A stretch of 64,000 bases of DNA from an uncultured virus (IMG/VR IMGVR_UViG_3300044675_001378) (taxonomy: Duplodnaviria > Heunggongvirae > Uroviricota > Caudoviricetes), in the IMG/VR virus record IMGVR_UViG_3300044675_001378; one strand, 5' to 3'. Each line of letters opens with the position of its first letter. The first letter of the stretch is position 1. Below the pieces are notes generated by a model, which searched no databases, was not told the origin of the DNA, and saw only the letters and a list, made by a program, of their open reading frames with translations. A program made the translations under genes and the position numbers. Positions 1 to 50,400 of the stretch are shown here, piece after piece.

Positions 1-55
1 AGTCCGCTACGCTGGATGCGTAGAAGTGGGCGTTATCTGGCATGTTCTCGTTCAT
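1..55 (-). CDS. 5' part of early hypothetical protein (same gene as 63011..63256), truncated by window edge
   Basis: 1..58 identical to 63202..63259; ATG at 55 after GGAGAAGACAA. Confidence 0.75.
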   Translation of the reverse strand, partial: MNENMPDNAHFYASSVAD

Positions 56-58
56 TTG
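1..58. repeat. terminal overlap block 1 (identical to 63202..63259)
   Basis: direct comparison, 58/58 identical, offset 63201. Confidence 0.95.
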
Positions 59-267
59 TCTTCTCCATGTTCCATAGTTAAAGCCAAGCCCCATATGAGA
101 TAGGCGTCTATCACAGTCACCGCCTCTGGGTACAGTTGATAAATCTCCTCCTCGTCACGCCCCATGCACAGCATGAACACAATGTGCTCTACCTGTTTCT
201 CAGGCACATACGCGCAGATGTTTCCATACGCCTTAACAAAGGCTTTAATCTCTTTCACTGTTCTCAT
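52..267 (-). CDS. hypothetical early protein (71 aa, MRTVKEIK...), allele A of variable slot
   Basis: ATG after GGAGAAAGCAA RBS; stop overlaps next ATG (ATGA). Confidence 0.75.
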   Translation of the reverse strand: MRTVKEIKAFVKAYGNICAYVPEKQVEHIVFMLCMGRDEEEIYQLYPEAVTVIDAYLIWGLALTMEHGEDK

Positions 268-494
268 TTGCTTTCTCCTAAGTGTTGCCGCACTGCGGCG
301 TCTATGACATCCCATGTGATGCCGACATTGCAATCGAACGCACGAGCAACAAGCTCAAGCACCATCACGCAGTCATCCTCTGTGAAGTTCTCTGCCCCCT
401 CTATTTCGTTGCACGCAATCACATTGACTACATCTTCTACGCTCCAGTCATCACGCAGAATCCACTTGCTGTTTTCTTGAATCATCTTTGCCAT
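264..494 (-). CDS. hypothetical early protein (76 aa, MAKMIQEN...)
   Basis: AGGAGAAGACAAATG start; conserved in second copy 63537..63767. Confidence 0.8.
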   Translation of the reverse strand: MAKMIQENSKWILRDDWSVEDVVNVIACNEIEGAENFTEDDCVMVLELVARAFDCNVGITWDVIDAAVRQHLGESK

Positions 495-505
495 TTGTCT
501 TCTCC

Positions 506-655
506 TTAGTTGGTTGCGTTTATATCTACAAAACACTCGCTCTCGAATGAGGGGTCTACATCCGCCACTGCGTGGCGCTCCCCGTCCACCCACAAGTACA
601 CCTCGCAGTCAGGTGGCAGGTGCTTTAACTGCTCGATCAGTTCGCTTGTCTTCAT
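506..655 (-). CDS. hypothetical early protein (49 aa, MKTSELIEQLKHLPPDCEV...)
   Basis: not in ORF track; AAGGAGAAAGCAAATG start; conserved copy at 63779..63928. Confidence 0.8.
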   Translation of the reverse strand: MKTSELIEQLKHLPPDCEVYLWVDGERHAVADVDPSFESECFVDINATN

Positions 656-662
656 TTGCTTT

Positions 663-703
663 CTCCTTAAAGTGCGGTCTGAGAACGGCAGACCGCTAAC
701 CGC
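663..703 (-). ncRNA. leader pseudoknot element, copy A
   Basis: GCGG-UUA-GCGGUCUG-CCGUUCU-CAGACCGC-ACUUUAAGGAG. Confidence 0.6.
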
Positions 704-706
704 TTT

Positions 707-1261
707 TTAAACAACTCTCCCATTAGCTTCACAATCGGGGCAATCAGTCCAGACAGGGGACAGTTCCCCATCGAGGTCTATCCCAAAATGTTTGGCACAG
801 GTTTCGCAGCCATGCGTTTCGCTCCAGATAGCCTCGGCTTCCCGTTCAACTTCACTCAATGCGACATAGAAGCGGTTGTTAAATTCTTCTGGCTCTTCGT
901 CCAGTTGCTTGGCTTCGACTTCAATGCTTTCTGTGCATTGGTCTACTCCCTCCACAATGCTCCCGACCATCATTGCGACAATCAGCACGCCTTTTTCGTC
1001 TAAGTCTTTCCAAGTCCCGAGTCGGCGCAATGCGTCACTGTGAACCCACTCGCTGACCAGTTTGTCAAAAGGGAAGTCATTGAACCCATCAGGCTCGATG
1101 GTCTTGTAGTACTCGATCTGCATGCTCAGATACGCTCCGCAATCGGTGTACTTGTACACCTGCCGGTACAACTCAGCGGGACTGTCGGCATCGGGGAACG
1201 CTTCGGCAAAGTACTGGTTGTCGAGTTGATCGACATCGTACTCAGGGGGATGGTCTGTCAT
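707..1261 (-). CDS. acidic hypothetical protein with C-terminal CxxC..CxxC
   Basis: 184-aa ORF, RBS GGAGAAGTGAAATG, CETC/CPDC. Confidence 0.8.
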   Translation of the reverse strand: MTDHPPEYDVDQLDNQYFAEAFPDADSPAELYRQVYKYTDCGAYLSMQIEYYKTIEPDGFNDFPFDKLVSEWVHSDALRRLGTWKDLDEKGVLIVAMMVGSIVEGVDQCTESIEVEAKQLDEEPEEFNNRFYVALSEVEREAEAIWSETHGCETCAKHFGIDLDGELSPVWTDCPDCEANGRVV

Positions 1262-1665
1262 TTCACTTCTCCTTGTGGTGTGTAGCTCATGTCAAGAAAC
1301 CCTGACGCATATTCGCTGTCCTCCAGCCCGTAGCGAAAGCCCACATACTCGTAAGTCCCATCTTCACGCTTGCCACACGCATAGAAGAAACCATCGGCGT
1401 TACCGCTTCGGTAGTAAAACGCACTGCTCGCCCACTGTGCTCGGGTCTGCTCAATCTTTAACTCTCGCCACTGCCGATACCAAATGGGCGCGAACCACTC
1501 ATTGATTTCGTGTCGGGCTTCGTAGTTTTCCCAATCCTCGAACTTGTGCTTGGCTATCCAGTCGGGCACTGTGTTTCTCAGTGCTGTGTGCATCTGTTGG
1601 TCGGTCAGCACTAGGCTGTCGGGCCACTCGCCCATCTGGGCTTCCATTAGTGTGTTGTATCTCAT
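1258..1665 (-). CDS. hypothetical early protein (135 aa, MRYNTL...)
   Basis: AAGGAGAAGACGATG start; coupled to next gene. Confidence 0.8.
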   Translation of the reverse strand: MRYNTLMEAQMGEWPDSLVLTDQQMHTALRNTVPDWIAKHKFEDWENYEARHEINEWFAPIWYRQWRELKIEQTRAQWASSAFYYRSGNADGFFYACGKREDGTYEYVGFRYGLEDSEYASGFLDMSYTPQGEVK

Positions 1666-1671
1666 CGTCTT

Positions 1672-1710
1672 CTCCTTAAAGTGCGGTCTGAGACGGCAGA
1701 CCGCTAACCG
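1672..1710 (-). ncRNA. leader pseudoknot element, copy B
   Basis: CGG-UUA-GCGGUCUG-CCGUCU-CAGACCGC-ACUUUAAGGAG. Confidence 0.6.
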
Positions 1711-1718
1711 GTAAATCT

Positions 1719-1734
1719 GGGGAGAATCCTCCCC
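1719..1734. promoter_or_regulatory. GGGGA-palindrome site 1
   Basis: ggggagaatcctcccc; one of 7 copies. Confidence 0.65.
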
Positions 1735-1751
1735 GAGCCGATAGACACCCG

Positions 1752-2510
1752 TCAGTCTGGCAGGTCGATGCCGTGCCATGTCACCGGCACGAGGTCAGTC
1801 GGGCGCAGTAGTTTGATGGTGTGCATGGCCGCTTGCATCTTGCTGATCTGGATACGCATGTCGTTGATCTCCTGCTGTTTGAAGATGTGCGTGTCGGTCA
1901 ACTTAGCATCGGCAAGCTCCACGGCCATGCGGCGCTCAAGGATGGCCAGCTCCTTGTCGGTGCGCTCAATGAGGCGGCGCTTATGTATGGCGTGCTGTGT
2001 CGTAGGCCATCGGCGCTCGAACGGGGTCTTTTGCCTCACGCCCTTGATGTAGGGTATCTGGGCGAAGTACTCCTTGATGAGCGCTATCTTCTTGGGCGGC
2101 ATCCAGTCCGTCCAGTGCTCGCCTTTGTTGGGGACATTTGTCCCCGCCGCCAGTTTGGTGGGCGTTTCCTCTGAGGTGTTGGCCTTGAGTACGAGCCGCC
2201 CGATGATGGCGTCAAGCACCATGAGATAAGCCTCCAGTGCAAGGGTGCGTTCGGGGCTGTTATTGGCTAAATCTAAACTCAACATCCTCTGCACGATGCG
2301 GCGTTCGGCCTTGGCAGGGGCTATGAGGTCGCCCCAAAGTCGCTTGTGTTGCGTATCTCGGGCGAGATGTGCGAACTTCTTGTGCCTCTCGGACATCACC
2401 TGAGATATGAGTTCTTCAGCATATCCCAGCGGTAGCTTACGCTTGGCGAGGGTTTTGCGTAAGGTGCTTTCGCTCATACGCAGGTAGGATTTGGGAAAAT
2501 CCATAGTCAT
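1752..2510 (-). CDS. hypothetical basic helical protein (252 aa) next to origin candidate
   Basis: long ORF, AAGGAG RBS. Confidence 0.8.
   Translation of the reverse strand: MTMDFPKSYLRMSESTLRKTLAKRKLPLGYAEELISQVMSERHKKFAHLARDTQHKRLWGDLIAPAKAERRIVQRMLSLDLANNSPERTLALEAYLMVLDAIIGRLVLKANTSEETPTKLAAGTNVPNKGEHWTDWMPPKKIALIKEYFAQIPYIKGVRQKTPFERRWPTTQHAIHKRRLIERTDKELAILERRMAVELADAKLTDTHIFKQQEINDMRIQISKMQAAMHTIKLLRPTDLVPVTWHGIDLPD
2130..2145. promoter_or_regulatory. GGGGA-palindrome site 2 (intragenic)
   Basis: ggggacatttgtcccc. Confidence 0.55.
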
Positions 2511-2519
2511 ATCTCCTTT

Positions 2520-2900
2520 TCATACCGAGTTTTGGACAGAGTGGGAATTGTATCGCATGTTGTGCTAAGCGTCTGGACACCCCGCAGGCCGCATGGATAA
2601 AGGCATTGGACAGAAAGTGTCCAGCTCACTATCTAACAAACAACTAGCCATAGCCAAAGCCTTTAAGTAAAAACAAAAGCCCGAGCAAACGCATATACAC
2701 ACTCTCTAATATATATTATATATAAAGATTTAGATAGAGGGTGCGGACACTTACCCCCCAGAACCTAGCATCCATGCGGGTTGCGGCTGTACTGGGTGCT
2801 TAGCACAAAGTGCGATAAGAAGGGACGGTCTGGACACTTAGTCTTATCTCAATTTTGTACGAGTCTTATCTCAAATCCGTACCGAGTCTTATCGCACCCT
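2520..2900. other. candidate replication origin (nested inverted repeats, AT-rich core, 3 iteron-like repeats)
   Basis: non-coding; AT tract 2707-2729; AGTCTTATC(T/G)CA at 2840, 2862, 2885. Confidence 0.5.
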
Positions 2901-2909
2901 GTTGTCTGC

Positions 2910-2925
2910 GGGGAGAAATCTCCCC
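2910..2925. promoter_or_regulatory. GGGGA-palindrome site 3
   Basis: ggggagaaatctcccc. Confidence 0.65.
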
Positions 2926-2929
2926 AAGA

Positions 2930-3142
2930 TCAGAAAAGTGCCTGCTGTACTGGCGCCATGTTGCGCTCAAGCCAACGCTCGAAGCTGGCCTCACAGGTAA
3001 AGGAGATGCCGCAGGTCGGTCTGCCCACGGGGACAGCCGAGGTGATCTTGAAGTCACGCCTGTCTGTGGGGTAGTAGTCGAATAGATCGTAGTCGCCGCA
3101 GGGCAGAGACAAGACGCCGACATGTTTGATGTGCTGTTTCAT
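2930..3142 (-). CDS. hypothetical early protein (70 aa)
   Basis: AAGGAG RBS directly after pseudoknot copy C. Confidence 0.75.
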   Translation of the reverse strand: MKQHIKHVGVLSLPCGDYDLFDYYPTDRRDFKITSAVPVGRPTCGISFTCEASFERWLERNMAPVQQALF

Positions 3143-3148
3143 TTTTAA

Positions 3149-3188
3149 CTCCTTGAAGCGCAGTCTGAGAACGGCAGACTGCTAACCG
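3149..3188 (-). ncRNA. leader pseudoknot element, copy C
   Basis: CGG-UUA-GCAGUCUG-CCGUUCU-CAGACUGC-GCUUCAAGGAG (compensatory change in stem). Confidence 0.6.
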
Positions 3189-3195
3189 GATTCTT

Positions 3196-3211
3196 GGGGA
3201 GGTTTCTCCCC
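3196..3211. promoter_or_regulatory. GGGGA-palindrome site 4
   Basis: ggggaggtttctcccc. Confidence 0.65.
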
Positions 3212-3214
3212 GAC

Positions 3215-3553
3215 TCAGTAGTTGTAGCTGACACGGACGCGCACTGCGTATTCACGGGGGCTGACACGCTTGACGCTCGCCTGATGGGTAGCGCATCCAC
3301 AGCAGTCGTACTCGTGACGGCATCCACTGCCGCCGAGACTCTGCCCGATGGCACGAGTCAGGTCTTTGCCCTTGAGCGCCGAGGGTGCGACCACTCGGTA
3401 GCGGTATGATCCGCCATCGTCATAGCCCTCGCCCTCGGTCTGGCGGGTAACGCCTAGCACTTTGACAGTGCCGGTGAATTCCTCGGTGTCGAGGTGTCGC
3501 CATCCGTCCGCATAGCGGTTGGTCAGGCGGGTAAACAGGTTGGCTTTGTACAT
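3215..3553 (-). CDS. hypothetical protein with CxHxxDCCGC motif
   Basis: 112-aa ORF in early array. Confidence 0.75.
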   Translation of the reverse strand: MYKANLFTRLTNRYADGWRHLDTEEFTGTVKVLGVTRQTEGEGYDDGGSYRYRVVAPSALKGKDLTRAIGQSLGGSGCRHEYDCCGCATHQASVKRVSPREYAVRVRVSYNY

Positions 3554-3562
3554 GGCTTGCTT

Positions 3563-3703
3563 TCAGAATTCGTTGGTGAGGATGGTTGCTACGGCTTGGG
3601 CGTCTCTGGCTTTGAGCGCTTCGACAATTGCAGGGTTTTCAAGCGCAAGGCTCGGGTCTACGCAGTGCTCAAGGCACAAGGTGAGGAATTCGTTTTGGGT
3701 CAT
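3563..3703 (-). CDS. hypothetical early protein (46 aa, MTQNEFL...)
   Basis: GGAG RBS; fills gap in array. Confidence 0.7.
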   Translation of the reverse strand: MTQNEFLTLCLEHCVDPSLALENPAIVEALKARDAQAVATILTNEF

Positions 3704-3799
3704 AGTCATATCTCCAATAAAAATGCCGCACGATGGCGGCGATTGACACGAAAAGAAACACCGGCCAAGCCTCCCGCTTGTACCGGTTGACAGAAACTC

Positions 3800-3815
3800 G
3801 GGGAGATTTCTCCCC
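3800..3815. promoter_or_regulatory. GGGGA-palindrome site 5
   Basis: ggggagatttctcccc. Confidence 0.65.
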
Positions 3816-3819
3816 AGAA

Positions 3820-4251
3820 TCACTTGGCGAATGCAGTAGCCATAGCCTTTGAAGCCAAGGACTTAGCGTTCTTGTACGCATTGGCCAGCTTAGCCAACTC
3901 TTTCGCCGCTTTCAGCAACTCGGCAGGGATTTCCTCCTCCTCTTTGAGGTTGCTTCCCTCTGCCCGAACGATGTGGTACGCAAACTTCTTGCCTGCCGCA
4001 TTGACGGCCTTTTCATCCTTGGCGTTTCTCTCTGCCCGTGTCAGCGCCACGATCTTGGCCGCTTTCTCAGGTGTCGTCTTCAGGTTGCCCTGTACATACG
4101 ATGTCACGAAGTCCGTCCGCATGGCCGCTTGCCCCTCTGCATCCGCCTTGTGATACGCCTTGTGAAAGGGCAGGGATGCCTCAAGGGTGAGGCGATCAGC
4201 GTTGCCGAGGCCGAGTGCAAACTGCGAGAGGTTGAGTGTGATTGTTGACAT
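3820..4251 (-). CDS. first early gene, Ala/Lys-rich hypothetical protein
   Basis: 143-aa ORF, AAGGA RBS. Confidence 0.8.
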   Translation of the reverse strand: MSTITLNLSQFALGLGNADRLTLEASLPFHKAYHKADAEGQAAMRTDFVTSYVQGNLKTTPEKAAKIVALTRAERNAKDEKAVNAAGKKFAYHIVRAEGSNLKEEEEIPAELLKAAKELAKLANAYKNAKSLASKAMATAFAK

Positions 4252-4272
4252 TTGAAAAGTCCTTCTGAAGGT

Positions 4273-4288
4273 GGGGAGGTTTCTCCCC
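4273..4288. promoter_or_regulatory. GGGGA-palindrome site 6 (leader of first early gene)
   Basis: ggggaggtttctcccc. Confidence 0.65.
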
Positions 4289-4298
4289 GTGGGTTGAT

Positions 4299-4333
4299 GC
4301 GGTTAAGTTCCCCTAACCGCTAACTCTATTGTA
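4299..4333 (-). promoter_or_regulatory. candidate early promoter -10 (TACAAT) followed by 5' hairpin GCGGTTA/TAACCGC
   Basis: TACAAT at 4328-4333 (- strand); no clear -35. Confidence 0.4.
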
Positions 4334-4562
4334 CTATGAGGGGTAGCACCGAAGCACTCACAGGGGAGAAACGGCTACCTGTCAACCCCACCCACCCCCC
4401 ACCAAGCCTGCTACAGAGCGGGGTAGCTGTGCCACATGAACACTATTCCCCTCCGATAATCCCCATTTTTGTCAAACGGCACAAAATCAAAACAAGCGCT
4501 AAAGTTTACAGTTACCCCAAACACTCACCCCCACAAAATTTTGCAAAAATTCCATGAAACTA

Positions 4563-4578
4563 TGTCTAATGTTAGACA
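4563..4578. promoter_or_regulatory. TGTCYA-N4-TRGACA palindrome site 1
   Basis: tgtctaatgttagaca; copies at 48538 and 58581. Confidence 0.6.
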
Positions 4579-4587
4579 TACACAGAC

Positions 4588-4612
4588 AAAAAAATGCCCG
4601 GACAAGCCGGGC
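4588..4612 (-). terminator. intrinsic terminator (- strand)
   Basis: GCCCGG-cttgt-CCGGGC followed by ATTTTTTT on - strand. Confidence 0.55.
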
Positions 4613-4719
4613 TAAGATGTATTTGCGTACATCAAGGAGAAGCAATGACTACGAAAACGCAGACACCACTCAAAAAGTAGTGTATATTAAAGGCTCCGAG
4701 TCCGCAAGGTACTACGCGC

Positions 4720-5382
4720 ATGTTGGATCACTTGTTAGATTTTGAGCCGCCAGTGGTTGAGGCCACCGGCAAGGACGTGTCCGGGTTGGACAGGGCAACG
4801 CCCGACCAAATACTCAACGCACAGGTCAATACGACCAAATGGCTGGAAAAACTTGGCGTCGAAGACGACCAAAAGATTCTGCAAGAGGCCGAAGCCAAGG
4901 CAGCACGCACAGTTTTCGCAACGCTGGCCAACAATGCGACCCCCGCCGAGACCAAAAACCAGTTGACGCTGCTCAAAACGCCGGAGTCCGTCAGGCATCT
5001 GGTGACGCTGCTGTCTGCATACGACTGGGAGTTTGTGGAGCAGGCCAAGCAGATGCGCGGCATGGCGGTCGCCAAGATTATTGAGGAAACCAACCACCCC
5101 GACGCCCGGATCAGGCTTAAAGCCATTGAGATGCTTGGGCGCGTGACGGAAGTAGCACTGTTCACGGACAGGTTGGAGGTCAAGAAGACTGATCTGACGG
5201 ACGCCGAGATCGACCAGAAGCTCCAAGACAAGCTCGACAAGCTGCTCAACGTCATAGATGTGGACATCACCGTTGGCGAAACCACGGCAGACATCACGGA
5301 CGTGGAACCCAGCACGCTAGATGAGAGTGAGCACTCACTAACATCCGAAGAACCTCCAGCCCCCACCGACGATGAATCTTGA
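4720..5382 (+). CDS. terS: terminase small subunit
   Basis: directly upstream of and overlapping terL; RLKAIEMLG helix typical of TerS. Confidence 0.7.
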   Translation: MLDHLLDFEPPVVEATGKDVSGLDRATPDQILNAQVNTTKWLEKLGVEDDQKILQEAEAKAARTVFATLANNATPAETKNQLTLLKTPESVRHLVTLLSAYDWEFVEQAKQMRGMAVAKIIEETNHPDARIRLKAIEMLGRVTEVALFTDRLEVKKTDLTDAEIDQKLQDKLDKLLNVIDVDITVGETTADITDVEPSTLDESEHSLTSEEPPAPTDDES

Positions 5383-6916
5383 CGCGCTCAATCTGAAACC
5401 GGAAGAGGTCAAGGCCCTACGCGCAGCGTTGCCGACGATGACCAAAGCGGCCAAGCAGGATTTGATGGAGATGCTGGAGGTGTTTGAGGAGCGTGAAAGT
5501 CGTAATGCGCTCCACAACTCGCGCCTTAACATGATTGACTTCGCCAAGAAGGTGTACCCCGGCTTCAAGGTTGGGCCGCACCACAGGAAGCTGGCCAAGA
5601 TTTTTCAGGACGTGATCGACGGCAAAAAGAAGCGCGTCATCATCAACATCGCCCCTCGTATGGGTAAGTCTGAGTTCTCCAGCTACCTGTTCCCGGCGTA
5701 CTTCCTAGGTAATTACCCTAATAAGAAGATCATCATGGGCACGCACACGGCGTCCCTGTCGGAAGACTTTGGCCGCAGGGTCAGGAATTTGCTGGAGGAC
5801 GAGGACTTTAATACCGTGTTCCCGGGCACCAAGTTGGCGCAAGATCAGAAGGCTTCAGGCAAATGGAGCACTGACACAGGGGGACAGTACTACGCAGCCG
5901 GTGTGGGCGGAGCCTTGGCTGGACGGGGTGCTGACCTGTTCCTGATCGACGACCCGCACTCTGAGCAGGACGTTAAAGCCAACAGTCGTCTAGCGTTTGA
6001 CACGGCGTGGTCGTGGTTCCAGACAGGCCCGTTGCAGCGCCTGATGCCCAATGGCGCGATCATTGTGGTGATGACCCGGTGGGGCCCACTGGACCTGACC
6101 GGGCGGCTGATCGACTACCAAGTCAAGAACCCGGACTCCCCGCGCTGGGAGATCGTGGAGCTACCCGCCATACTGCACGAAGGCACGGACCACGAGAAGT
6201 CGCTCTGGCCGGAGCAGTGGCCGCTCGCTTCGCTGCTGTCCGCCAAGTCGTCGATGGACCCGAGGTATTGGAACGCGCAGTACATGCAGCAGCCCACCTC
6301 GGACGTGTCGGCCATCATCAGCAGGAAGAGCTGGAGAATCTGGGAAAAAGACGAGCCGCCCAAGTGCGATTACATTATTCAGAGCTGGGACACGGCCCAC
6401 GAGACCAAAAGCACATCCGACTATTCGGCTTGTACAACTTGGGGAGTTTGGTACAACGACGAAGAAAACAACGCCCCGCAGGTCATCTTGCTGGACGCGT
6501 TCAAGGACAGGATGGCGTTCCCTGAGCTGAAAGCAATTGCGTTCAAACACTGGAAAGAGTGGGAGCCGGACGCGTTTATCGTGGAGAAGAAAGCCGCCGG
6601 TGGGCCTCTGATACAGGAGCTGCGGGCGATGGGCATACCCGTGCAAGAGTTTACGCCGAGCCGAGGAAACGATAAGATGGTGCGGGTCAACGCAATTGCA
6701 GACTTGTTTACCTCCGGCATTATCTGGGCACCGGATACCCGCTGGGCACGCGAAGTCATCGAAGAGGTGGCGGCGTTCCCGGTAGGCGAGAATGACGACT
6801 ATGTGGATACGACCAGTCAGGCGCTGCTGCGCTTCAGGCAAGGTGGATTTATCTCACTGGACTCGGATGAGAAAGACGACAAGATTTACCGTGGGCGCGT
6901 AGCCGCCTACTATTAA
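5372..6916 (+). CDS. terL: terminase large subunit
   Basis: Walker A APRMGKS, Walker B LFLIDDP, VMTRW coupling motif, nuclease SWDTA and NDDYVD. Confidence 0.95.
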   Translation: MNLDALNLKPEEVKALRAALPTMTKAAKQDLMEMLEVFEERESRNALHNSRLNMIDFAKKVYPGFKVGPHHRKLAKIFQDVIDGKKKRVIINIAPRMGKSEFSSYLFPAYFLGNYPNKKIIMGTHTASLSEDFGRRVRNLLEDEDFNTVFPGTKLAQDQKASGKWSTDTGGQYYAAGVGGALAGRGADLFLIDDPHSEQDVKANSRLAFDTAWSWFQTGPLQRLMPNGAIIVVMTRWGPLDLTGRLIDYQVKNPDSPRWEIVELPAILHEGTDHEKSLWPEQWPLASLLSAKSSMDPRYWNAQYMQQPTSDVSAIISRKSWRIWEKDEPPKCDYIIQSWDTAHETKSTSDYSACTTWGVWYNDEENNAPQVILLDAFKDRMAFPELKAIAFKHWKEWEPDAFIVEKKAAGGPLIQELRAMGIPVQEFTPSRGNDKMVRVNAIADLFTSGIIWAPDTRWAREVIEEVAAFPVGENDDYVDTTSQALLRFRQGGFISLDSDEKDDKIYRGRVAAYY

Positions 6917-6924
6917 GGATCAAC

Positions 6925-9393
6925 ATGGCAACGAACATCGACAAAGCACTCTTTCAGCAACCACAGGGCATCGACGCATTGGCCGAAGATGAGCAGGGCA
7001 TTGAAATTGAGATTGTTGATCCTGAATCGGTGAGCATTGAAGGCCCGGGGTTTGCCATTGAGTTGGCCAAGGTTGAGGCCGAGAACGACTTTGATGTCAA
7101 TCTGGCCGAAGAGATGGACGAGAGCGCCCTTGGGTCAATGGCCGGGGACTTAGCCGAAGACATTGACAACGACCGCAACTCGCGCAAGGAGTGGGAGAAA
7201 GCGTACACGGAAGGGCTGAAGCTGCTGGGCTTGCAGGTCGAAGAGCGCACAGAGCCTTGGAACGGCGCGTCTGGTGTGTTCCACCCGATGATTACTGAGG
7301 CCGTGGTCAGGTTCCAGTCAGAGGCAATCACGGAGTCGTTCCCCGCCCAAGGGCCGGTGCGCACGAAGATCATCGGTAAAGAGACTCCGGAGAAGCAGCA
7401 AGCTGCGCGGCGGGTTGAGGCCGACATGAACTACGAGCTGACAGACGTGATGAAAGAGTTCCGGCCAGAGCACGAGCGCATGTTGTGGTCGCTGCCAGCC
7501 ACAGGCTCGGCGTTCAAGAAGGTGTACTACGACCCCAATTTGGGACGGCAGGTGTCGATGTTTGTACCCGCAGAGGACATCCTCTTGCCATACGGCACGA
7601 CCGACATGGACACTTGCTATCGCTTGACACACGTCATGCGCAAGACCAAGAACGACATCATCAAGCTCCAGCAAGCAGGCTTTTACCGCGACATCGATCT
7701 GGGCGACCCCACACGCGAGCAGACCAACATTGAGAAAGCCAAGGACAAAGAGACCGGCTTCAGCGATCTGAACGACGACCGTTACGTCTTGATGGAGTGC
7801 CACGTTGACTTGGACCTCAAGGGGTTTGAAGACAAGGACGACGACGGCGAGCCAACAGGCATTGCGCTGCCGTACGTAATTACAATCATTAAGGGGACCA
7901 ACGATGTACTGTCCATTCGACGCAATTGGCGCGAAGATGACGAGCTGCACCTCAAGCGCCAGCACTTCGTTCACTACCAATACGTACCCGGCTTCGGTGC
8001 TTATGGCTTTGGACTATTCCATCTCATCGGGGGATTTGCCAAGTCGGCCACCAGTATCATGCGCCAGCTTGTGGACGCCGGGACACTATCGAATCTACCC
8101 GGGGGCCTCAAGACTCGCGGACTTCGGATCAAGGGTGATGACACTCCGATTGCCCCCGGCGAGTTCCGGGACGTAGACATCGGCTCAGGCGCACTGCGGG
8201 ACAACATCCTGCCGCTGCCATATAAAGAGCCGTCGGCTGTTTTGTACAGTTTATTGGGCACCATCGTTGAGGAAGGTCGCCGCTTCGCAGCTACTGCGGA
8301 CATGAAGGTTGCCGACATGTCGGCCAACGCTCCGGTGGGTACAACTCTGGCTCTACTGGAGCGTCAGTTAAAAGTCATGTCGGCTGTGCAGGCGCGTATG
8401 CACTACGCGTTCAAACAAGAGCTGCGCCTCTTGGCCGGTCTGATCCGTGACTACACAGACCCCGCGTATGACTACGAGCCGGACCGTGGTGGACGCAGAG
8501 CCAAGGCAGAAGACTACAACCACGTAGACATCATCCCTGTGTCGGACCCCAACGCGGCAACCATGAGCCAGCGTGTGGTGCAGTACCAAGCCGTTATCCA
8601 GATGGCGCAGATGGCCCCCGAGATTTATGACCTGCCCTTGTTGCACCGCAACATGCTGGAGGTGCTGGGCATCAAGAACGCCGACAAGCTCGTGCCGCTG
8701 CCAGACGACCAGAAGCCAAGAGACCCTGTGTCCGAGAACATGATGGTGCTTAAAAGTGAGCCGGTCAAAGCGTTCCTGTATCAAGACCATGAGGCGCACA
8801 TCAAGGTACACATGTCAGCAATGCAGGACCCGATCATCATGCAGTTGATTGGCCAGAACCCCAAGGCCGCGATGATCCAAGCGGCCATGATGGCGCACGT
8901 TGCTGAGCACGTTGGTTTTGCGTACCGTCAGAAAATTGAGCAGCAGCTTGGCATCCCCCTGCCGCCGGAAGACGAGAAACTCCCGCCACAGGTCGAGGTT
9001 GCACTGTCCGCCATGATGGCGCAGGCTGCGCAGCAGGTTCTCCAACAGAGCCAAGCGCAGCAAGCCCAGCAACAGGCTCAGCAGCAAGCCCAAGACCCCG
9101 TGCTCCAGCTTCAGCAGCAGGAGTTGCAGATCAAGCAGAACGAGTTGGCGCTCAAAGACAAGAAGATCACTATCGATGCCGCCGCCCGTGCGGACGAGCT
9201 GGACCTCAAAGAAAAGGCGTTGGCTGCAAAGATGGAGTTGGACGGCTTCAAGGCGGGCCAGCAGGCCACGCAGGCCGAAAAGAAGTTGCAGTCCGACCAA
9301 GAACGAGAAGGTGTCCGCATGGGCATCGACATCGCAAGAAGTCGCCAACAGGCGATGCAGAAAAACCAACCACCGAAAGGCCCGGCCAAATAA
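6925..9393 (+). CDS. portal protein (podovirus type, Gln-rich C-terminal barrel)
   Basis: 822 aa after terL; GSAFKKVYYD, GFGAYGFGL motifs; long coiled-coil tail. Confidence 0.9.
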   Translation: MATNIDKALFQQPQGIDALAEDEQGIEIEIVDPESVSIEGPGFAIELAKVEAENDFDVNLAEEMDESALGSMAGDLAEDIDNDRNSRKEWEKAYTEGLKLLGLQVEERTEPWNGASGVFHPMITEAVVRFQSEAITESFPAQGPVRTKIIGKETPEKQQAARRVEADMNYELTDVMKEFRPEHERMLWSLPATGSAFKKVYYDPNLGRQVSMFVPAEDILLPYGTTDMDTCYRLTHVMRKTKNDIIKLQQAGFYRDIDLGDPTREQTNIEKAKDKETGFSDLNDDRYVLMECHVDLDLKGFEDKDDDGEPTGIALPYVITIIKGTNDVLSIRRNWREDDELHLKRQHFVHYQYVPGFGAYGFGLFHLIGGFAKSATSIMRQLVDAGTLSNLPGGLKTRGLRIKGDDTPIAPGEFRDVDIGSGALRDNILPLPYKEPSAVLYSLLGTIVEEGRRFAATADMKVADMSANAPVGTTLALLERQLKVMSAVQARMHYAFKQELRLLAGLIRDYTDPAYDYEPDRGGRRAKAEDYNHVDIIPVSDPNAATMSQRVVQYQAVIQMAQMAPEIYDLPLLHRNMLEVLGIKNADKLVPLPDDQKPRDPVSENMMVLKSEPVKAFLYQDHEAHIKVHMSAMQDPIIMQLIGQNPKAAMIQAAMMAHVAEHVGFAYRQKIEQQLGIPLPPEDEKLPPQVEVALSAMMAQAAQQVLQQSQAQQAQQQAQQQAQDPVLQLQQQELQIKQNELALKDKKITIDAAARADELDLKEKALAAKMELDGFKAGQQATQAEKKLQSDQEREGVRMGIDIARSRQQAMQKNQPPKGPAK

Positions 9394-9588
9394 ATGATCC
9401 AAGACTTCGCACGCGTATTGCGCGAACAAATACGCAAAGACATGAATAACTACGCTGACGACGCCGCCAGCGGAGCATGTCGCTCATTTGAGGAATATCA
9501 AAAACTCTGCGGAACCATTCAGGGTCTGGCTATTGCAGAGCGTTATGTACTCGACCTTGCAAAGAAAGTAGAGCAATCAGATGAGTGA
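9394..9588 (+). CDS. conserved small hypothetical protein
   Basis: 64 aa between portal and GroES; EYQKLCGTIQGL. Confidence 0.75.
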   Translation: MIQDFARVLREQIRKDMNNYADDAASGACRSFEEYQKLCGTIQGLAIAERYVLDLAKKVEQSDE

Positions 9589-10006
9589 AATTCTTTTGCC
9601 GCCGGGTATTACCTTACCCAAACACATCCAGCCCCTAGATAAACCCGAGGAGGACGGCGACAAAGGGTCCGCCTTGCCTGTACCGACGGGCTACAAGATG
9701 TTGTGTATCGTGCCTGCCGTGGACGAAAAACTCGCCGGGACATCTCTTGACCTTATCCGAGATGCCGCGACCATGCGCCTTGAAGAGAGCGCCACAACCG
9801 TGCTTTGGGTTATGAAGCTCGGGCCAGATGCGTACAAAGACACCGCCAAGTTCCCATCAGGTCCGTGGTGCAAGGAAGGTGACTTTGTGCTCGTGCGTAC
9901 CTACACCGGTACGCGTTTTAGGGTGTTTGGTAAAGAGTTCAGAGTATTGAACGACGACCAGATTGAATGTGTTGTGCAAGACCCCCGTGGGTATACCCGC
10001 GCTTGA
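9581..10006 (+). CDS. groES: GroES-like co-chaperonin
   Basis: PTGYKML start, LGPDAY..WCKEGDFV..YTG..EFRVLNDDQI Cpn10-like motifs. Confidence 0.8.
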   Translation: MSEILLPPGITLPKHIQPLDKPEEDGDKGSALPVPTGYKMLCIVPAVDEKLAGTSLDLIRDAATMRLEESATTVLWVMKLGPDAYKDTAKFPSGPWCKEGDFVLVRTYTGTRFRVFGKEFRVLNDDQIECVVQDPRGYTRA

Positions 10007-10016
10007 AGGAGCAAAA

Positions 10017-10961
10017 ATGCCTGCTTTTAAATTTCCTGATGAGATTGAAGACAAAGACGTTGTGGTTTCACAACAAGAAGACGGTGATGTCGAAGTTGAA
10101 ATTGTTGATGACACACCGGAGCGCGACAAGGGACGAAAACCCTTAGACCGGGAGGTGGCTGACCCCACAGATGCTGAGATTGAAACCTACACGCGTGGGG
10201 CGCAGGAACGCATCAAAGAGTTGACACACGCCCGTCACGACGAACGTCGAGCAAAAGAGGCGCTCCAGAGAGAAAAGCAAGAGCTTGAGCGTCTTGCACA
10301 ACACATGCACTCGGAGAACCAAAAGCTCAAACAGTATGTGGACAGCGGTTCCCAGCAGTATGGGGAGATGGCAAAAACCGCAGCCGAAGCTGAGTTGGAC
10401 AAAGCCCGCCGAGATTACAAAACGGCGCAGGAAGCGTTTGACACGGACGGCATCATTGCGGCGCAGGAAGCCCTGACTGAAGCCAAAATGAAAATTGCGT
10501 CAGTAAAAAACTTTCGTCCAACTGCTTTACAACAGGAAGAAAGTGTTGTACAAACTAGGCAACCCGCACCCCAACCGGTGCAACCCGACGAAAAAACCCT
10601 GCGCTGGCAGGCCAAAAACCAGTGGTTCGGGGCCGAGGGGTTCGAAGAAGTTACCAGCTTTGCACTAGGGCTGCACCAGAAACTAGTCAATAACGGGGTC
10701 GATCCCCGCAGCAGTGAGTATTTCGAGCGGATTGACGCTCGCGTAAAGTCTACGTTTCCTGAAGTCTTTGGCGATGCTGAAGAGCGTAAGGTAACGGATT
10801 CCCCAAAAAGGCCAACTTCGGTTGTTGCCCCAGCAAATCGCTCTACGGGCGCAAGAAAAGTACAACTGACACCCACGCAGGTAGCGTTGGCGAAGAAATA
10901 TGGCCTTACCCCGCAGCAGTATGCAAACGAAGTAGCAAAATTGGAGAAATTAAATGGCTGA
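10017..10961 (+). CDS. putative capsid scaffolding protein
   Basis: GAAGGAG RBS; acidic N-terminus, coiled coil, C-terminal LTPTQVALAKKYGLTPQQYA; upstream of capsid genes. Confidence 0.65.
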   Translation: MPAFKFPDEIEDKDVVVSQQEDGDVEVEIVDDTPERDKGRKPLDREVADPTDAEIETYTRGAQERIKELTHARHDERRAKEALQREKQELERLAQHMHSENQKLKQYVDSGSQQYGEMAKTAAEAELDKARRDYKTAQEAFDTDGIIAAQEALTEAKMKIASVKNFRPTALQQEESVVQTRQPAPQPVQPDEKTLRWQAKNQWFGAEGFEEVTSFALGLHQKLVNNGVDPRSSEYFERIDARVKSTFPEVFGDAEERKVTDSPKRPTSVVAPANRSTGARKVQLTPTQVALAKKYGLTPQQYANEVAKLEKLNG

Positions 10962-20703: not shown

Positions 20704-21546
20704 ATGTTTGGTATATCCGCATTTGCACAGGCCCCATTTGCGGCTCTCGGTGAAAACGTAGTCGTCGTTGCCCTGACGGGCGTGTCCGCGTCCGGGAATG
20801 TTGGATCAGTTCTCAGTGGGCAAGAACTAACGGGCGTGTCTGCGTCTGGGGCTGTTGGGTCTGTAACAGGCTCAAGCACCGTTGCTCTGTCGGGTGTTGC
20901 GGCCTCCGGTTTTGTTGGATCAGTTACTGCGGCTTCGACAGTTGCCCTGACGGGCGTGTCTGCATCTGGAGAGGTTGGCACTGTTGCTCGCGGGGACACA
21001 GCATTTGCTCTGTCAGGGGTAGAGGCTTTAGGGGGTGTTGGTTCCGTCGGGGTGACAAACTCTCTTGCCCTGATTGGCGTGTCTGCGGCGGGGGCCGTTG
21101 GTACTGTTTCTCGCGGGCCAACATTATTTGCCCTGACAGGGGTTGAGGCTTCCGGCGCTGTTGGGACAATGATCTACAACGAGTCGGATGCAACATCCGG
21201 CGATGTGGCAATAGGCGAAGTTGGCACAGTAGCCCCCTCTCTCACCGTCGCTCTTACGGGGGTGGCGGCTTCAGGTTTTGCAGGCACGGTGAGCCACAGC
21301 AAAACAATTGCGCTGACTGGAAATTTGGCAATCGGAACCGCTGGATCGGTTGGGTTTACAGAGTCTTTTGCGCTGTCTGGGGTGCAAGCCTCGGGCGCGG
21401 CTGGAACTGTAATCGCCGTTTATTGGATTTTGGTAGATGACAGTCAAACTCCAAACTGGCAAAATATCAACGATTCTCAAACACCCAACTGGGCGCTGGT
21501 AAATAACGCAGAAACGGCTGATTGGTCGTTGGTTGAGACGGATTAA
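20704..21546 (+). CDS. repeat-rich fibre-like virion protein
   Basis: ~19-aa ALTGVSASGxVG repeats; C-terminal DDSQTPNW repeats. Confidence 0.75.
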   Translation: MFGISAFAQAPFAALGENVVVVALTGVSASGNVGSVLSGQELTGVSASGAVGSVTGSSTVALSGVAASGFVGSVTAASTVALTGVSASGEVGTVARGDTAFALSGVEALGGVGSVGVTNSLALIGVSAAGAVGTVSRGPTLFALTGVEASGAVGTMIYNESDATSGDVAIGEVGTVAPSLTVALTGVAASGFAGTVSHSKTIALTGNLAIGTAGSVGFTESFALSGVQASGAAGTVIAVYWILVDDSQTPNWQNINDSQTPNWALVNNAETADWSLVETD

Positions 21547-21554: not shown

Positions 21555-22013
21555 ATGGCTCTCGTACTTGCAGACCGGGTAAAAGAAACAACCACCACGA
21601 CAGGTACTGGGACAGTAACGCTTCTGGGCGCATCAACGGGGTTCCAGTCGTTCGCGGCAGTTGGCGACGCCAACACCACCTATTACGCTATCGTGGCTCA
21701 AACCGGCACTGAATGGGAAGTTGGGATTGGTACGTATGCAACATCAGGCACAACCTTAGCCCGAACAGTGGTGTTGTCATCGTCTAACAGCGGATCAGCA
21801 GTCAACTTTAGCGCCGGAACAAAAGACGTATTTGTTACCTACCCGTCAGAACGCGCCGTGATTGGGGGTGAGGGTTATGTTGAAAACTCCGCAACGGTTG
21901 CTGTTAGCTCGACTATTACGGCAGGAAACAACGCCATGAGCGCGGGGCCAGTCACAATTAACTCAGGCATTACAGTAACAGTTCCTAGCGGTAGCCGCTG
22001 GGTTGTCGTTTAA
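21555..22013 (+). CDS. tail fibre/adaptor protein
   Basis: MALVLADRVKETT, WEVGIGTY; C-terminal GPVTINSGITVTVPSGSRWVVV. Confidence 0.75.
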   Translation: MALVLADRVKETTTTTGTGTVTLLGASTGFQSFAAVGDANTTYYAIVAQTGTEWEVGIGTYATSGTTLARTVVLSSSNSGSAVNFSAGTKDVFVTYPSERAVIGGEGYVENSATVAVSSTITAGNNAMSAGPVTINSGITVTVPSGSRWVVV

Positions 22014-22070
22014 CGGCAGTTGCCCACCATGCTTAAATCTGCGAAAATAACTTGAACGTAAGGGAAAGAC

Positions 22071-23039
22071 ATGGCAAGCACGTATTCAGACCTTAAATTT
22101 GAGCTGATTGGCACGGGCGAACAAGCAGGCTCTTGGGGCAGCACGACCAACGATAACATTGGCACGGCTATTGAGCAGGCCCTTGTCGGATTAGGCAACC
22201 CTGTTTTTACCAGCGACACCAACCTGACTATCAGCCTGAGCAACACAGTTGCGCTTCAGACGGCGCGAGCCTTGGTCCTGAACGCTACGTCTACGGGCAG
22301 TCTGACGGTTACCCGTGAGTTGGTGGTGCCAACCATCGAGAAGCAGTACATTGTTCAGAACAACACCTCGGGCGGTCAAAGCATTACCGTGAAGACCTCG
22401 GGCGGGACGGGTATCACGGTGCCCAACGGGCGCAAGGCGCATTTGTATGTAGACGGCACCAACGTCATCCAGATGTTCGACTTCGTAGACATCAACGGTG
22501 GTGCAATTGACGGCACTGTTATTGGTGGCGCTACTACGGCAGCGGGTAGTTTTACAACACTCAACGCCACCGTCTTGACCGCCACCGCAGACTCGGCCTT
22601 CACGTCTACAGGTGCTGTGCAGATTTCCAAGGGAACGACAGCAGAGCGCCCCACGGGCGTTACGGGCAAGCTAAGGTTCAACACTACCACTGGTGAGTTT
22701 GAGGGCTACACGGGCGCTGGTTGGGCTTCTGTGGGCGGTTCTGCAATTGTCAACGACACCAGCACAGCGTCAAATATTTTCCCGCTGATGGCAAGTGCAA
22801 CAAGCGGCACGGCCTTGACAGTCAACACCAGCAATGCCAAGCTGCTGTACAAGCCTTCAACGGGGGAGTTTCAGTCAACAGTATTGGTGGCCTCAAACGG
22901 CATTGTGGTGAACAGCCAGACGGTGGCAGAGAATTACACTATTGCCGCAACAAACAACGCAATGTCCTCTGGCCCAATCACTATCAACTCCGGCATCACA
23001 GTCACAGTCTCCAGCGGCTCTCGCTGGGCTGTTGTTTGA
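22071..23039 (+). CDS. tail fibre protein
   Basis: MASTYS..GEQAGSWG, GTTAERP..LRFNTT..FEGY; same C-terminal module as previous gene. Confidence 0.8.
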   Translation: MASTYSDLKFELIGTGEQAGSWGSTTNDNIGTAIEQALVGLGNPVFTSDTNLTISLSNTVALQTARALVLNATSTGSLTVTRELVVPTIEKQYIVQNNTSGGQSITVKTSGGTGITVPNGRKAHLYVDGTNVIQMFDFVDINGGAIDGTVIGGATTAAGSFTTLNATVLTATADSAFTSTGAVQISKGTTAERPTGVTGKLRFNTTTGEFEGYTGAGWASVGGSAIVNDTSTASNIFPLMASATSGTALTVNTSNAKLLYKPSTGEFQSTVLVASNGIVVNSQTVAENYTIAATNNAMSSGPITINSGITVTVSSGSRWAVV

Positions 23040-25714: not shown

Positions 25715-25873
25715 GTGGACGCGCTGCCGCCATTACCGCCAGCAGCACAAGCACCTGCTCCAACCTTTGAGTGCGTAAGGTGGTCGTGGTCCTCGGACCG
25801 CAAAGAAGTTTGGTGTCTCCAGTGGCGAGAAAAAGGCAAACCTGAACCTAAGAAGGTAGCGGAAAGTGATTGA
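25715..25873 (+). CDS. hypothetical protein (52 aa, Pro-rich, CVRW..WCLQW)
   Basis: not in track; GTG start, overlaps next gene start. Confidence 0.5.
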   Translation: MDALPPLPPAAQAPAPTFECVRWSWSSDRKEVWCLQWREKGKPEPKKVAESD

Positions 25874-26336
25874 TCCGATTACAGCCCTTGCAGGCATACA
25901 GGCAGCAGTTGCGCTCATCAAGAAGGTCAGCAAAACCGTTGACGATGTGTCGTCTCTTGGGCCTGTCCTTGGCAAGTACTTTGACGCAAAGTCCACCGCC
26001 ACCAAGGCGGTTGTTCAGGCCAAGAAGTCCAAGTCATCAATGGGCACGGCCATCCAGATCGAGATGGCGCTCGACCAAGCTAGACGGTTTGAAGATGAGT
26101 TGCAACTCCTGTTCATGCAGGCGGGGAAAATAGACGTCTGGAACCGCATAAAGTCCAGAGCAGCGGCGATGGATGTGGAGTCTGCCCATGATGCGCGGCG
26201 GGAGCGTGAGTCTGCGGTCAAGCGCAAGCAAGAGATGGATGAGGTTGTTGAGTTGGCCTTGCTGGCAGTTATCTTTTTTAGCTTAGTCGGGGTGATCTTA
26301 TATTTCACTATTGGCATCCTTGAGCAGCAAAGATGA
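25866..26336 (+). CDS. membrane protein, lysis region
   Basis: MIDPIT start, C-terminal TM helix. Confidence 0.75.
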   Translation: MIDPITALAGIQAAVALIKKVSKTVDDVSSLGPVLGKYFDAKSTATKAVVQAKKSKSSMGTAIQIEMALDQARRFEDELQLLFMQAGKIDVWNRIKSRAAAMDVESAHDARRERESAVKRKQEMDEVVELALLAVIFFSLVGVILYFTIGILEQQR

Positions 26337-26941
26337 GTGACGAGCGTTTAAACCTAGTTGACAAAGTGCTGGCGTATGTCAGCAGCCCGTTCCGTCTCTT
26401 TGCAATGGTGCTGATGGCCGTGCTCACGTTTGCTGGCTACTTTGTATATACAAACCAAGAGTTGTTGATAGGGGCGTACAAAGAGTCCAGAAAGATTCCC
26501 AGCATTGCCGAAGACCGCGTAGAAGACGCAGCAGCCCATCTGTTTAAACAGTCTGGCGCACAGATCGTGGCGGTGTTCAAGGTCAACTCAATGTTTGGCA
26601 CACGCATCCTGCACCGGGCCTACGCCAAGGACGGCAGGGACAAGACAAACGACGGGCTGGACGTGGGGCTGTTTACACAGAACGCAGGCAACAATTCGGA
26701 TGTGGTCAAGCTCATGGCTAACGAGATTCCGTGCAGCGAGTACAAGTCAGCGCAGTCGGAAATGGGTTTGTGGTACATCGCCAAGGGCGTTACCTATACG
26801 TGCCGTATCAGTGTGCCACCGGAACCGGGCAGATTTGTTGGGCAAATCACCGTTGGCTGGGCTACCCAGCCTGAAGACATGGACAGCACCCGCGCCATGC
26901 TTCAAATTGCAGCAACCATGCTTTCAAGGAGTAAACAGTAA
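26333..26941 (+). CDS. membrane-anchored protein, lysis region
   Basis: N-terminal TM helix plus soluble domain (CRISVPP..GQITVGW). Confidence 0.7.
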   Translation: MSDERLNLVDKVLAYVSSPFRLFAMVLMAVLTFAGYFVYTNQELLIGAYKESRKIPSIAEDRVEDAAAHLFKQSGAQIVAVFKVNSMFGTRILHRAYAKDGRDKTNDGLDVGLFTQNAGNNSDVVKLMANEIPCSEYKSAQSEMGLWYIAKGVTYTCRISVPPEPGRFVGQITVGWATQPEDMDSTRAMLQIAATMLSRSKQ

Positions 26942-27438
26942 TGGATTGGCTTAAACAAATCGCGCCCACAATTGCCACGGCAATGGGCGGTCCACTGGCG
27001 GGGATGGCTGTCTCGGCTATCTCCAAGGCAATCGGCGTAGACCCCGACAAAGTGGGCGACCTGATCTCCAGCAACAAGCTGTCCGCCGAGCAGATTGCTC
27101 AAGTCAAGATCGCTGAGATCGAGTTGCAGAAACAAGCGCAGGAGCTTGGCCTCAACTTTGAAAAGCTGTCTGTAGAAGACAGGAAGTCTGCACGGGACAT
27201 GCAAGCCGCCACGAGGTCAATTGTTCCCCCGGCCTTGGCCGCAATCATCACGGTTGGGTTCTTTGGCATTTTGGGCATGATGCTTTTTGGCAAGGTTGAC
27301 GGCAGCAACCCAACGATCTTGATGATGCTGGGCAGTTTGTCCACCGCTTGGACAGGCATCATTGCTTACTACTTCGGCTCCTCTGCTGGCTCACAGGCCA
27401 AGACAGACCTTCTTTCTAAGGCTCCGGCAATCAAATGA
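26941..27438 (+). CDS. putative holin (3TM-holin-like)
   Basis: APTIATAMGGPLAG, DRKSARDM, two C-terminal TMs, YYFGSS; adjacent to endolysin. Confidence 0.7.
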   Translation: MDWLKQIAPTIATAMGGPLAGMAVSAISKAIGVDPDKVGDLISSNKLSAEQIAQVKIAEIELQKQAQELGLNFEKLSVEDRKSARDMQAATRSIVPPALAAIITVGFFGILGMMLFGKVDGSNPTILMMLGSLSTAWTGIIAYYFGSSAGSQAKTDLLSKAPAIK

Positions 27439-27857
27439 CACCACACTTTACCCTCGCGGAACTGACCGTTACAAATCACCGTCAGTTTGACAACACGCCA
27501 AACGAAGCCGAGACAGCCAACTTGCAACGGCTTGCTGAGTTCTTGGAGCAGGTAAAAACTGTGCTGGGCGGCAAGCCGATTATGATTAACAGCGCCTTCC
27601 GGTCAAAGCAAGTCAACGACAGCGTTGGCTCCAAAGACACGAGCCAGCATAGAATTGGTTGCGCGGCAGACTTCCGTGTTCCCGGGATGACTCCCGATGC
27701 TGTGGTACGTGCAGTGATTGCTGCGGGTTTACCCTTTGACCAAATTATCCGTGAGTTTGATTCTTGGACGCATATCAGTGTGACAAACACACCGGACGGA
27801 ACCCCACGTAAGCAGGCGCTTATCATTGATAAAGCGGGCACTCGACCTTTTGCCTGA
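27435..27857 (+). CDS. endolysin, peptidase M15A family
   Basis: HFTLAEL, INSAFRS, SQH..GCAAD, WTHIS zinc motifs. Confidence 0.85.
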   Translation: MTPHFTLAELTVTNHRQFDNTPNEAETANLQRLAEFLEQVKTVLGGKPIMINSAFRSKQVNDSVGSKDTSQHRIGCAADFRVPGMTPDAVVRAVIAAGLPFDQIIREFDSWTHISVTNTPDGTPRKQALIIDKAGTRPFA

Positions 27858-48101: not shown

Positions 48102-48112
48102 GGTCTTCTTTC

Positions 48113-48517: not shown

Positions 48518-48537
48518 GGGCTTCTCCTATTTTTGTT

Positions 48538-48580: not shown

Positions 48581-48585
48581 CTCCT

Positions 48586-50148: not shown

Positions 50149-50163
50149 TGCTTCTCCATGTTC

Positions 50164-50397: not shown

Positions 50398-50400
50398 GAT

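Follow-up and report, generated by a model that had tools for sequence, protein, structure and literature searches.

Variable arrays of small, coupled early genes in a lake phage, with joints concentrated at the start signal

Integrons line up single genes that lack promoters of their own behind a fixed head element, with a joint at the 3' end of each unit. Their hallmarks are IntI, attC, a fixed crossover base and stacking at the first position. PeSLs are repeated elements of the hyperplastic early regions of T4-type phages; they end in a Shine-Dalgarno (SD) sequence and ATG, flank ORFans and, in the passages concerned, are described without an integrase (PMC2839356, PMC4122927). They are about 100 bp long, intergenic and contain a sigma70 promoter, and circles have been demonstrated. 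The same passages already draw the integron comparison and place some crossovers between the -10 box and the SD/ATG (PMC2839356, PMC4122927). SAS and ESAS, known from cluster K mycobacteriophages and Microbacterium phages of cluster EF, are asymmetric motifs of 13-14 nt at the position of the ribosome-binding site (RBS), found in one orientation and confined to non-structural genes; an inverted repeat precedes a subset of the motifs (PMC3203893, PMC7302621). The SAS consensus is GGGATAGGAGCCC; it mostly follows gaps of >50 bp and stays with its own gene family. Pairing of the ESAS arms is not supported, and the passages on SAS propose no role in recombination (PMC3203893, PMC7302621). The model of boundary or linker sequences, as stated in PMC3029335, holds that short conserved junction sequences are sites of homologous exchange. 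According to the same passage, most mosaic boundaries are without such sequences, and gp67 and gp68 of Island3 share their C-terminal ~50 bp (PMC3029335). Relaxed homologous recombination by Rad52-like phage recombinases is a general route to mosaics via short imperfect homology, with quoted minimal pairing lengths of 23-27 bp for Red-beta and 31-34 bp for RecA (PMC3945230). That source describes an ongoing debate on whether phage mosaics stem from recombination at short shared sequences or from random joining and selection.

The DNA analysed here, a stretch of 64,000 nucleotides from an uncultured tailed phage (IMG/VR IMGVR_UViG_3300044675_001378), is referred to as the window. It is one lap of a 63,201-bp lake-phage circle plus 799 bp of a second allele. 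An independent contig (L001) corresponds to 53693-63201 and leads straight on to 1-572, and a further one (L002) passes from 63013-63201 on to 1-10518. By these two paths the circle is closed through allele A, and no second copy is present. The original prediction of a circular map of ~63.2 kb with two coexisting genotypes is borne out by this closure and by the presence of both alleles in four metagenome runs. Genes of a tailed phage comprise a terminase (5372), a portal (6925), a capsid (12053), a primase (42948-45884) and PolA (51905-53875). The minus strand carries the early and replication genes. Among the matches listed, 24 runs contain part of 1-1300, and their labels read lake water, freshwater or plain metagenome. 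No close named relative was found in INPHARED, the sole match being Bradyrhizobium phage BDU-MI-1 at 23% identity. Outside the early region, the gene at 34935-42791 encodes a virion-module protein of 2618 aa with a C-terminal LPD38 domain, the rest of which is largely without family match. Internal repeats lie within tail-region genes (20766-21280 and 21912-23037), and the genes at 21555-22013 and 22071-23039 have a 100-bp 3' end in common. In the locus L007 (9711-10966), late-type genes resembling window 25867-27778 stand inverted directly after the early arrays; the order in the window differs. A 425-bp stretch without genes (2530-2830), with an inverted repeat (2551-2598 vs 2770-2817) flanking an AT-rich core, is conserved in L007 and origin-like.

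All array features lie on the minus strand. Array 1 begins behind a fixed upstream anchor, a gene of 250 aa (1752-2504) whose product has no match in the protein atlas. At its head stands a hairpin + SD element (1672-1710), followed by two allele-A cassettes (1258-1665 and 707-1261; together 707-1665), which are flanked by this and an internal hairpin copy (663-702). The hairpin-to-A start motif (653-666) leads to gene A (506-655, 49 aa), the A-to-B motif (492-505) to gene B (264-494, 76 aa, phrog_10258), and the B-to-C motif GGAGAAAGCAAATG (265-278, encoding GESK and stop) to gene C (52-267, 71 aa). Gene C is the allele-A cassette; it occurs in array 2 of L026 and among other genes in L019. 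The C-to-D motif of allele A, GGAGAAGACAAATG (53-66), encodes GEDK and stop. The 5' end of gene D with the CAA of its start motif (1-58) is identical to 63202-63259 and closes the circle. The array continues in the shared distal cassettes (62408-63256), i.e. D (63011-63256), E (62790-63014), 62611-62793 and 62408-62614. It ends in a non-coding double-hairpin element (62329-62407) before the fixed downstream anchor, a gene of 485 aa (60871-62328) that served as query for fetching relatives. Array 2 (58637-59691) is headed by a further hairpin + SD element (59698-59736) and holds variable cassettes including a NinX-like gene (58722-59015), with strict motifs at 59015 and 59281. Array 3 (55119-57930) consists of variable small genes with longer C-terminal boundary repeats (LKEKNT and IRARG.., each running to the stop). 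The shared C-termini AKLKEKNT and IRARGNT/QA of this array are encoded by its boundary repeats, and three tandem paralogues are found at 56670-57309. Array 0 has its hairpin + SD element at 3149-3188. In array 0 (3145-3703) and in L026-L028, genes are swapped at another boundary motif, CTGAAAGCA..CCATG, which is without the GGAG core.

The two ends of the window carry two versions of array 1. Followed in the direction of transcription, the left end is hairpin-1665-1261-hairpin-A-B-C-D, the right end X-A-B-C'-D. Allele B comprises the 3' end of gene X with a motif at 63926-63939 (63925-64000), copies of A (63779-63928) and B (63537-63767; both within 63537-63928), the B'-to-C' motif (63538-63551), gene C' (63274-63540, 88 aa, with family members in L047 and L105) and the C'-to-D motif (63254-63267). 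The predicted identity of 1-58 and 63202-63259 is exact (0 mismatches), and the homology extends to 70/63271 with 3 mismatches. Likewise, the estimate of about 15 substitutions between 263-667 and 63536-63940 proved to be exactly 15 in 405 bp. Twelve of the 15 fall within 63668-63761. This part is the 5' third of gene B and forms a mosaic patch within the shared block. The genes between the blocks (52-267 vs 63274-63540) are unrelated, as had been claimed; no BLASTP alignment was obtained. The first junction lies at -16 to -4 relative to the ATG (55/63256), with a spacer that differs by allele (GA vs AG), the second 2 nt past the ATG at 267/63540, and the third at the A immediately 5' of GGAG, with the ATG at 655/63928. 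All three are thus in motif copies, as predicted, but the copy at 63540, GAAGAAAGCAAATG, has A as second base and breaks the pattern first given, which missed it. Every gene start in the compared block has the motif; within the window, 'on the motif' therefore equals 'at a gene boundary'.

Both versions are real and coexist, for four lake metagenomes carry them. C' was covered without any differing letter in 4/4 metagenome runs when contigs were compared, and the gene B letters of allele A were found in the same four runs. A contig linking 63271 to 63536 via unlike DNA was present in 2/4. The comparison comprised contigs only, from four coded studies that perhaps belong to one campaign, one of them perhaps the source sample. 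Reads supporting a single allele had been named as a counter-indication; the contigs of 4/4 runs carry both versions. Since both alleles occur in the same runs, the contig is a walk along both branches of a population bubble. Contig depths of the two alleles roughly sum in X1, not cleanly in X2 or X8, and are not copy numbers. L001 agrees exactly with the window over 53693-63139 and differs from 63140 through to the end. The alleles are thus identical over 9.4 kb, and their difference is a single contiguous tract, ~4% diverged. This pattern indicates that they probably met by ordinary tract exchange. The simplest account is that the allele tract was transferred in one piece by ordinary homologous exchange; the motif junctions inside it may be older than that exchange. 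The notion of gene swapping 'captured' at the contig ends is consequently too strong. The X-to-A junction at 63940 was found in the window alone, and no listed contig piece spans it; elsewhere, X (86 aa) is a genuine first-slot cassette behind the hairpin in L027 and L019. Pattern searches of IMG/VR gave 0 matches for the C'-D junction and one match, allele A, for the start of gene A.

Relatives were compared as 88 fetched loci together with the two window ends as separate pieces; the anchor search covered the best 80 of 193 relatives. Genes were called by a custom script, with some errors, and the set includes several near-duplicate loci. Between its fixed anchors, the array strings together small genes, most of them coupled by ATGA, with hairpin + SD at its head. 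Array 1 showed 51 distinct layouts in 60 complete non-empty copies, with 1-13 genes each from 105 families, 15 of which are common to arrays 1 and 2. Gene D is preceded by 18 different families and followed by 14. Insertions and deletions affect middle and distal slots too, e.g. L076 vs L078 and L066/L082/L085. The order of families is kept in 267/291 pairs and occurs both ways in 24/291 (7/284 within clades). Internal joints overlap by 4 nt in 639/1720 junctions; others leave gaps of 11-17 nt. Insertion, deletion, replacement and, at times, relocation all affect whole genes.

Ends of high-identity alignments peak at ATG -15 to -11 on the left and 0 to +4 on the right, ~15x the local null; these HSP counts are not independent and give a first look only. 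Across genomes, identity falls to ~0.3, close to baseline, directly 5' of the SD where genes are shared behind different neighbours (145 events), and drops directly 3' of the ATG(A) where they are shared ahead of different neighbours (142 events). The latter set admitted shifts of <=6 nt only and is thus biased against remnants. The test was therefore repeated with the stop codon as anchor, after removal of length-capped events (6/166 and 8/145). The shared stretch then starts at the SD in 67/137 events and stops 0-10 nt into the next gene in 67/160; 100/160 are in register. Ends reaching at least 16 nt into the displaced gene make up 15/320 right-end positions. Matching figures for a late-region control are 5/46, 4/42 and 11/42; this control drew on 80 loci plus the window, had 42 and 46 uncapped events, and suffers from greater divergence and noise. 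On the left side (-22 to +5), overall clustering at boundaries amounts to 104/137, not significantly above the 30/46 of the late control (p=0.18). The unit of counting was the family triple and not the tree branch, and loci include near-duplicates, so that p-values overstate independence. Off-motif events account for 26/145 on the left side and about one third on the right. Some of these are artefacts of gene calling; others are diverged tails, C-termini shared over a greater length, or joints on the stop side that fall at fixed non-coding elements.

Between SD and ATG, the spacer matches exactly in 31/93 events with the same upstream gene and 21/80 with the same downstream gene, vs 138/2307 unrelated same-clade pairs, a baseline that mixes arrays. 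Among 35 cases it tracks the downstream gene in 9, the upstream gene in 5, both in 6 and neither in 15. As the spacer can follow either neighbour, the crossover corresponds to a window of about 15-20 nt, not to a fixed base. The stop-to-start gap is kept in 92/142 events vs 0.30 expected, in a set preselected for small shifts. Some joints have scarcely more than the ATG in common. In relatives, joints lie between the SD and the first codons of the gene that follows; most are in register and free of remnants. The part of the original prediction that placed whole-gene exchange at the RBS/start overlap holds in relatives as well, while the motif as its cause is a matter of interpretation.

The strict start motif occurs in 9 copies in the window, all on the minus strand and all at starts of early genes, against an expectation of 0.0015 per strand (second-order Markov model). 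The claim of more than a dozen early starts applies to the loose form G[GA]AGAA-N3-7-ATG, not to the strict one. The loose form is found at 15/20 called starts in arrays 1 and 2, 4/15 in array 3 and 0/5 in array 0. Outside the arrays it precedes 8/15 fixed replication genes and 1/40 late genes, which marks the motif as first of all a translation signal. An A-rich sequence 3' of GGA is described as an S1-dependent signal of T4 early mRNA in the passage concerned (PMC1702504). A RegB-type decay site was rejected as a candidate; Pfam gave no match to the RegB family, and comparison with the RegB consensus gave 2-4 mismatches in 11. The GE[S/D/V/G]K ends described earlier were confirmed as GESK, GEDK, GEVK and GEGK, formed by ATGA overlap on six window gene types. 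Among C-termini of coupled genes across the loci, GESK is the commonest (41/420), followed by EKNT (28). The motif version varies between clades and arrays, and further boundary classes are present (LKEKNT, IRARG, CTGAAAGCA..CCATG). With clade-specific versions, these other classes and 8/15 fixed core starts, the motif is not a single exact recombination site.

The 40-nt hairpin element consists of CGGTTA, an 8-bp stem with a loop around CCGTCT, and the SD. Its four copies in the window (663-702, 1672-1710, 3149-3188 and 59698-59736) belong to 52 matches in 32/90 pieces. In 27 hand-picked distinct copies the stem is 100% paired (216/216 cells), with two-sided changes at 5/8 pairs; covariation scored 0.511, against 0.187 after shuffling. 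The core TGCC-n-n-CTCA is invariant, and usually a second, more variable hairpin with a 4-nt loop precedes it. A search of the window against Rfam gave no match on the hairpin, only a sub-threshold sX14 at 12947. The hairpin stays put while the first cassette behind it changes among relatives; hairpin-genes-hairpin units occur in the window (e.g. 1665-1261) and in L026, and internal array joints are without it. The covarying hairpin is a putative, uncatalogued regulatory element of phages, at a guess an early regulatory site recognised by a protein. A search for promoters of the sigma70 type in 1-4800 found none on the early strand and one plus-strand site, below chance. Near-palindromes of the GGGGAGAAATCTCCCC / GGGGACAAATGTCCCC type lie in early intergenic positions (2909-2935, 3192-3212, 3797-3818, 4263-4289 and 62386-62406) and are possibly operator or promoter hairpins.

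Integrase and recombinase families were absent from the matches of 58 proteins to PHROGs, 84 to Pfam and 20 to NCBIfam, many ORFs being matchless. The same searches of the window proteins gave no match to a tyrosine or serine recombinase and identified no known annealing protein, Rad52-like ones included. Pfam indicated a candidate PD-(D/E)XK nuclease (50401-51069), a candidate Hjc-like Holliday-junction resolvase (54138-54431) and a Gp157/Pam3-gp33-like gene (48113-48517), all on the minus strand. The nuclease and the Gp157-like gene belong to a group of candidate recombination or replication genes (47130-51069), as does a protein of 323 aa (47130-48101). For the latter, structure predictions reached pLDDT 40 and 36, no sequence match was found in the PDB, and the only lead in the protein atlas was Pam3_Gp34, 10% of one cluster.

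The joints are probably products of short-homology recombination at the SD-ATGA overlap, with selection as a filter. On co-infection, the general recombination of phage or host (exonuclease and strand annealing), without a site-specific integrase, would pair purine-rich SD-spacer-ATGA stretches of 13-20 nt from non-allelic genes, or else the hairpin element of 40 nt. Crossing over there in register would preserve the upstream frame, rebuild the RBS and keep the coupling, and for this reason such products would survive. The motif would most likely be maintained for strong early translation, its role at joints being a by-product, yet it would cause the exchange rather than mark the sole surviving joints. 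New arrays would then be passed on as entire tracts through ordinary homologous exchange in flanking DNA, which fits the allele pair of the window best. The chief argument for this reading is the remnant-free, in-register joints between very close genomes. Against it, stretches of 13-20 nt with mismatches are below the quoted minima for Red-beta and RecA. Since motif and gene boundary coincide in coupled genes, selection too concentrates surviving joints there. It is conceivable, if rather unlikely, that homology-independent joining took place anywhere and was followed by selection for frames, RBS and coupling, the motif being only a strong early RBS. The loose motif at replication starts (8/15, vs 1/40 late genes) points to such a role in expression, as does the likeness of GGA and its A-rich sequel to the S1-dependent T4 signal in the passage cited (PMC1702504). 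Left ends in the late control also cluster at boundaries (30/46 within -22 to +5), and some joints share little beyond the ATG. Random joints should, however, mostly leave remnants or foreign tails; ends of at least 16 nt number 15/320, 100/160 events are in register and 92/142 keep the stop-to-start gap (0.30 expected, in the set preselected for small shifts). Moreover, the joints are exact already between alleles only ~4% diverged.

A dedicated, integrase-free cassette system is improbable. In such a system, an unrecognised phage protein would act on the 14-nt coupling sites or the array-heading hairpin and move single-gene circles out and in. The RBS for the next gene does sit at the 3' end of the cassette, genes move between arrays, 24/291 family pairs occur in both orders, and several conserved array-adjacent proteins are without assignment. 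The crossover base is not fixed, though, the motif varies by clade and array, order is kept in 267/291 pairs, indels reach beyond the first slot, and a tyrosine or serine recombinase was not matched. One X5 contig returns from 59030 to 58735, start to end of the NinX-like gene, as a circle or a tandem would. It was not accepted as a circle, being a single contig of depth 3.1 and 90% likeness in a widespread gene. Least probable is an artefact or duplication, with a right end chimeric with an unrelated phage or both copies in one molecule. Taken as a whole, the contig does join two alleles in a chimeric walk, the X-to-A junction is seen in the window alone, the scan for the gene-A start gave allele A only and the C'-D pattern is without IMG/VR match. 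Nevertheless, C', X, A and B all belong to array families of this phage group, contigs of runs X2 and X5 link B' with C' over 45 letters, and X5 also extends, on the D side, 30 letters into DNA in common with allele A. Duplication is contradicted by L001 and L002, which show one copy only across 53693-63201-10518. Short-homology recombination filtered by selection remains the preferred reading.

Like an integron, the array is a series of single-gene units behind a fixed head element, with the joint at the 3' end of the unit. Four integron features were not found here, namely IntI, attC, the fixed crossover base and entry at the first position. Internal joints overlap by 4 nt or leave 11-17 nt, and the motif is not palindromic, unlike attC. 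With no fixed crossover base, an order mostly kept and no integrase found, the array is not an integron. The original description as an integron-like array without integrase thus stands in that no integrase was recognised and falls in that a fixed crossover base, room for attC and first-slot entry are missing. The 40-nt hairpin + SD element resembles PeSLs in its stem-loop followed by SD and start, and it borders variable ORFans of hyperplastic regions and stands at indels; this likeness concerns the array-heading element only. Most joints here are without promoter or hairpin, and neighbouring genes have 4 nt in common. The phage, with PolA and a genome of 63 kb, is not T4-like and has no sigma70-like site on the early strand of 1-4800. 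As with SAS, an asymmetric motif stands at the RBS, in one orientation and at non-structural genes (9 strict copies, minus strand, early). Its sequence is unrelated to GGGATAGGAGCCC, most genes overlap by 4 nt, and the hairpin here covaries. The boundary-sequence model is matched by a short conserved sequence common to both sides of mosaic joints, and array 3 with its longer shared C-terminal boundary repeats is comparable to Island3 gp67/gp68. In contrast to that model, such sequences are the rule in one region here, span 13-20 nt, sit within the coding tail and serve at once as RBS, stop and start. The motif is also shorter than the minimal pairing segments quoted for relaxed recombination, and a Rad52-like gene was not identified in the window.

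The array works like boundary-sequence mosaicism and like PeSL cassettes, and is not an integron, PeSL or SAS as defined. What differs is a 14-nt joint inside the coding tail that is the coupling signal itself. A search of the open-access literature retrieved no paper on this exact arrangement. Current models stand, as PeSLs and boundary sequences already contain the concept. With ~300 joints mapped, both alleles present together in the same lakes and a 14-nt site open to recoding, the question of mosaic origin becomes directly testable. Should a dedicated cassette system be true, an abundant freshwater phage family would sample a pool of >100 gene families. If the exchange is sequence-directed, crossovers would take place in homology shorter than known recombinases prefer, and a translation signal alone would make a gene row plug-and-play.
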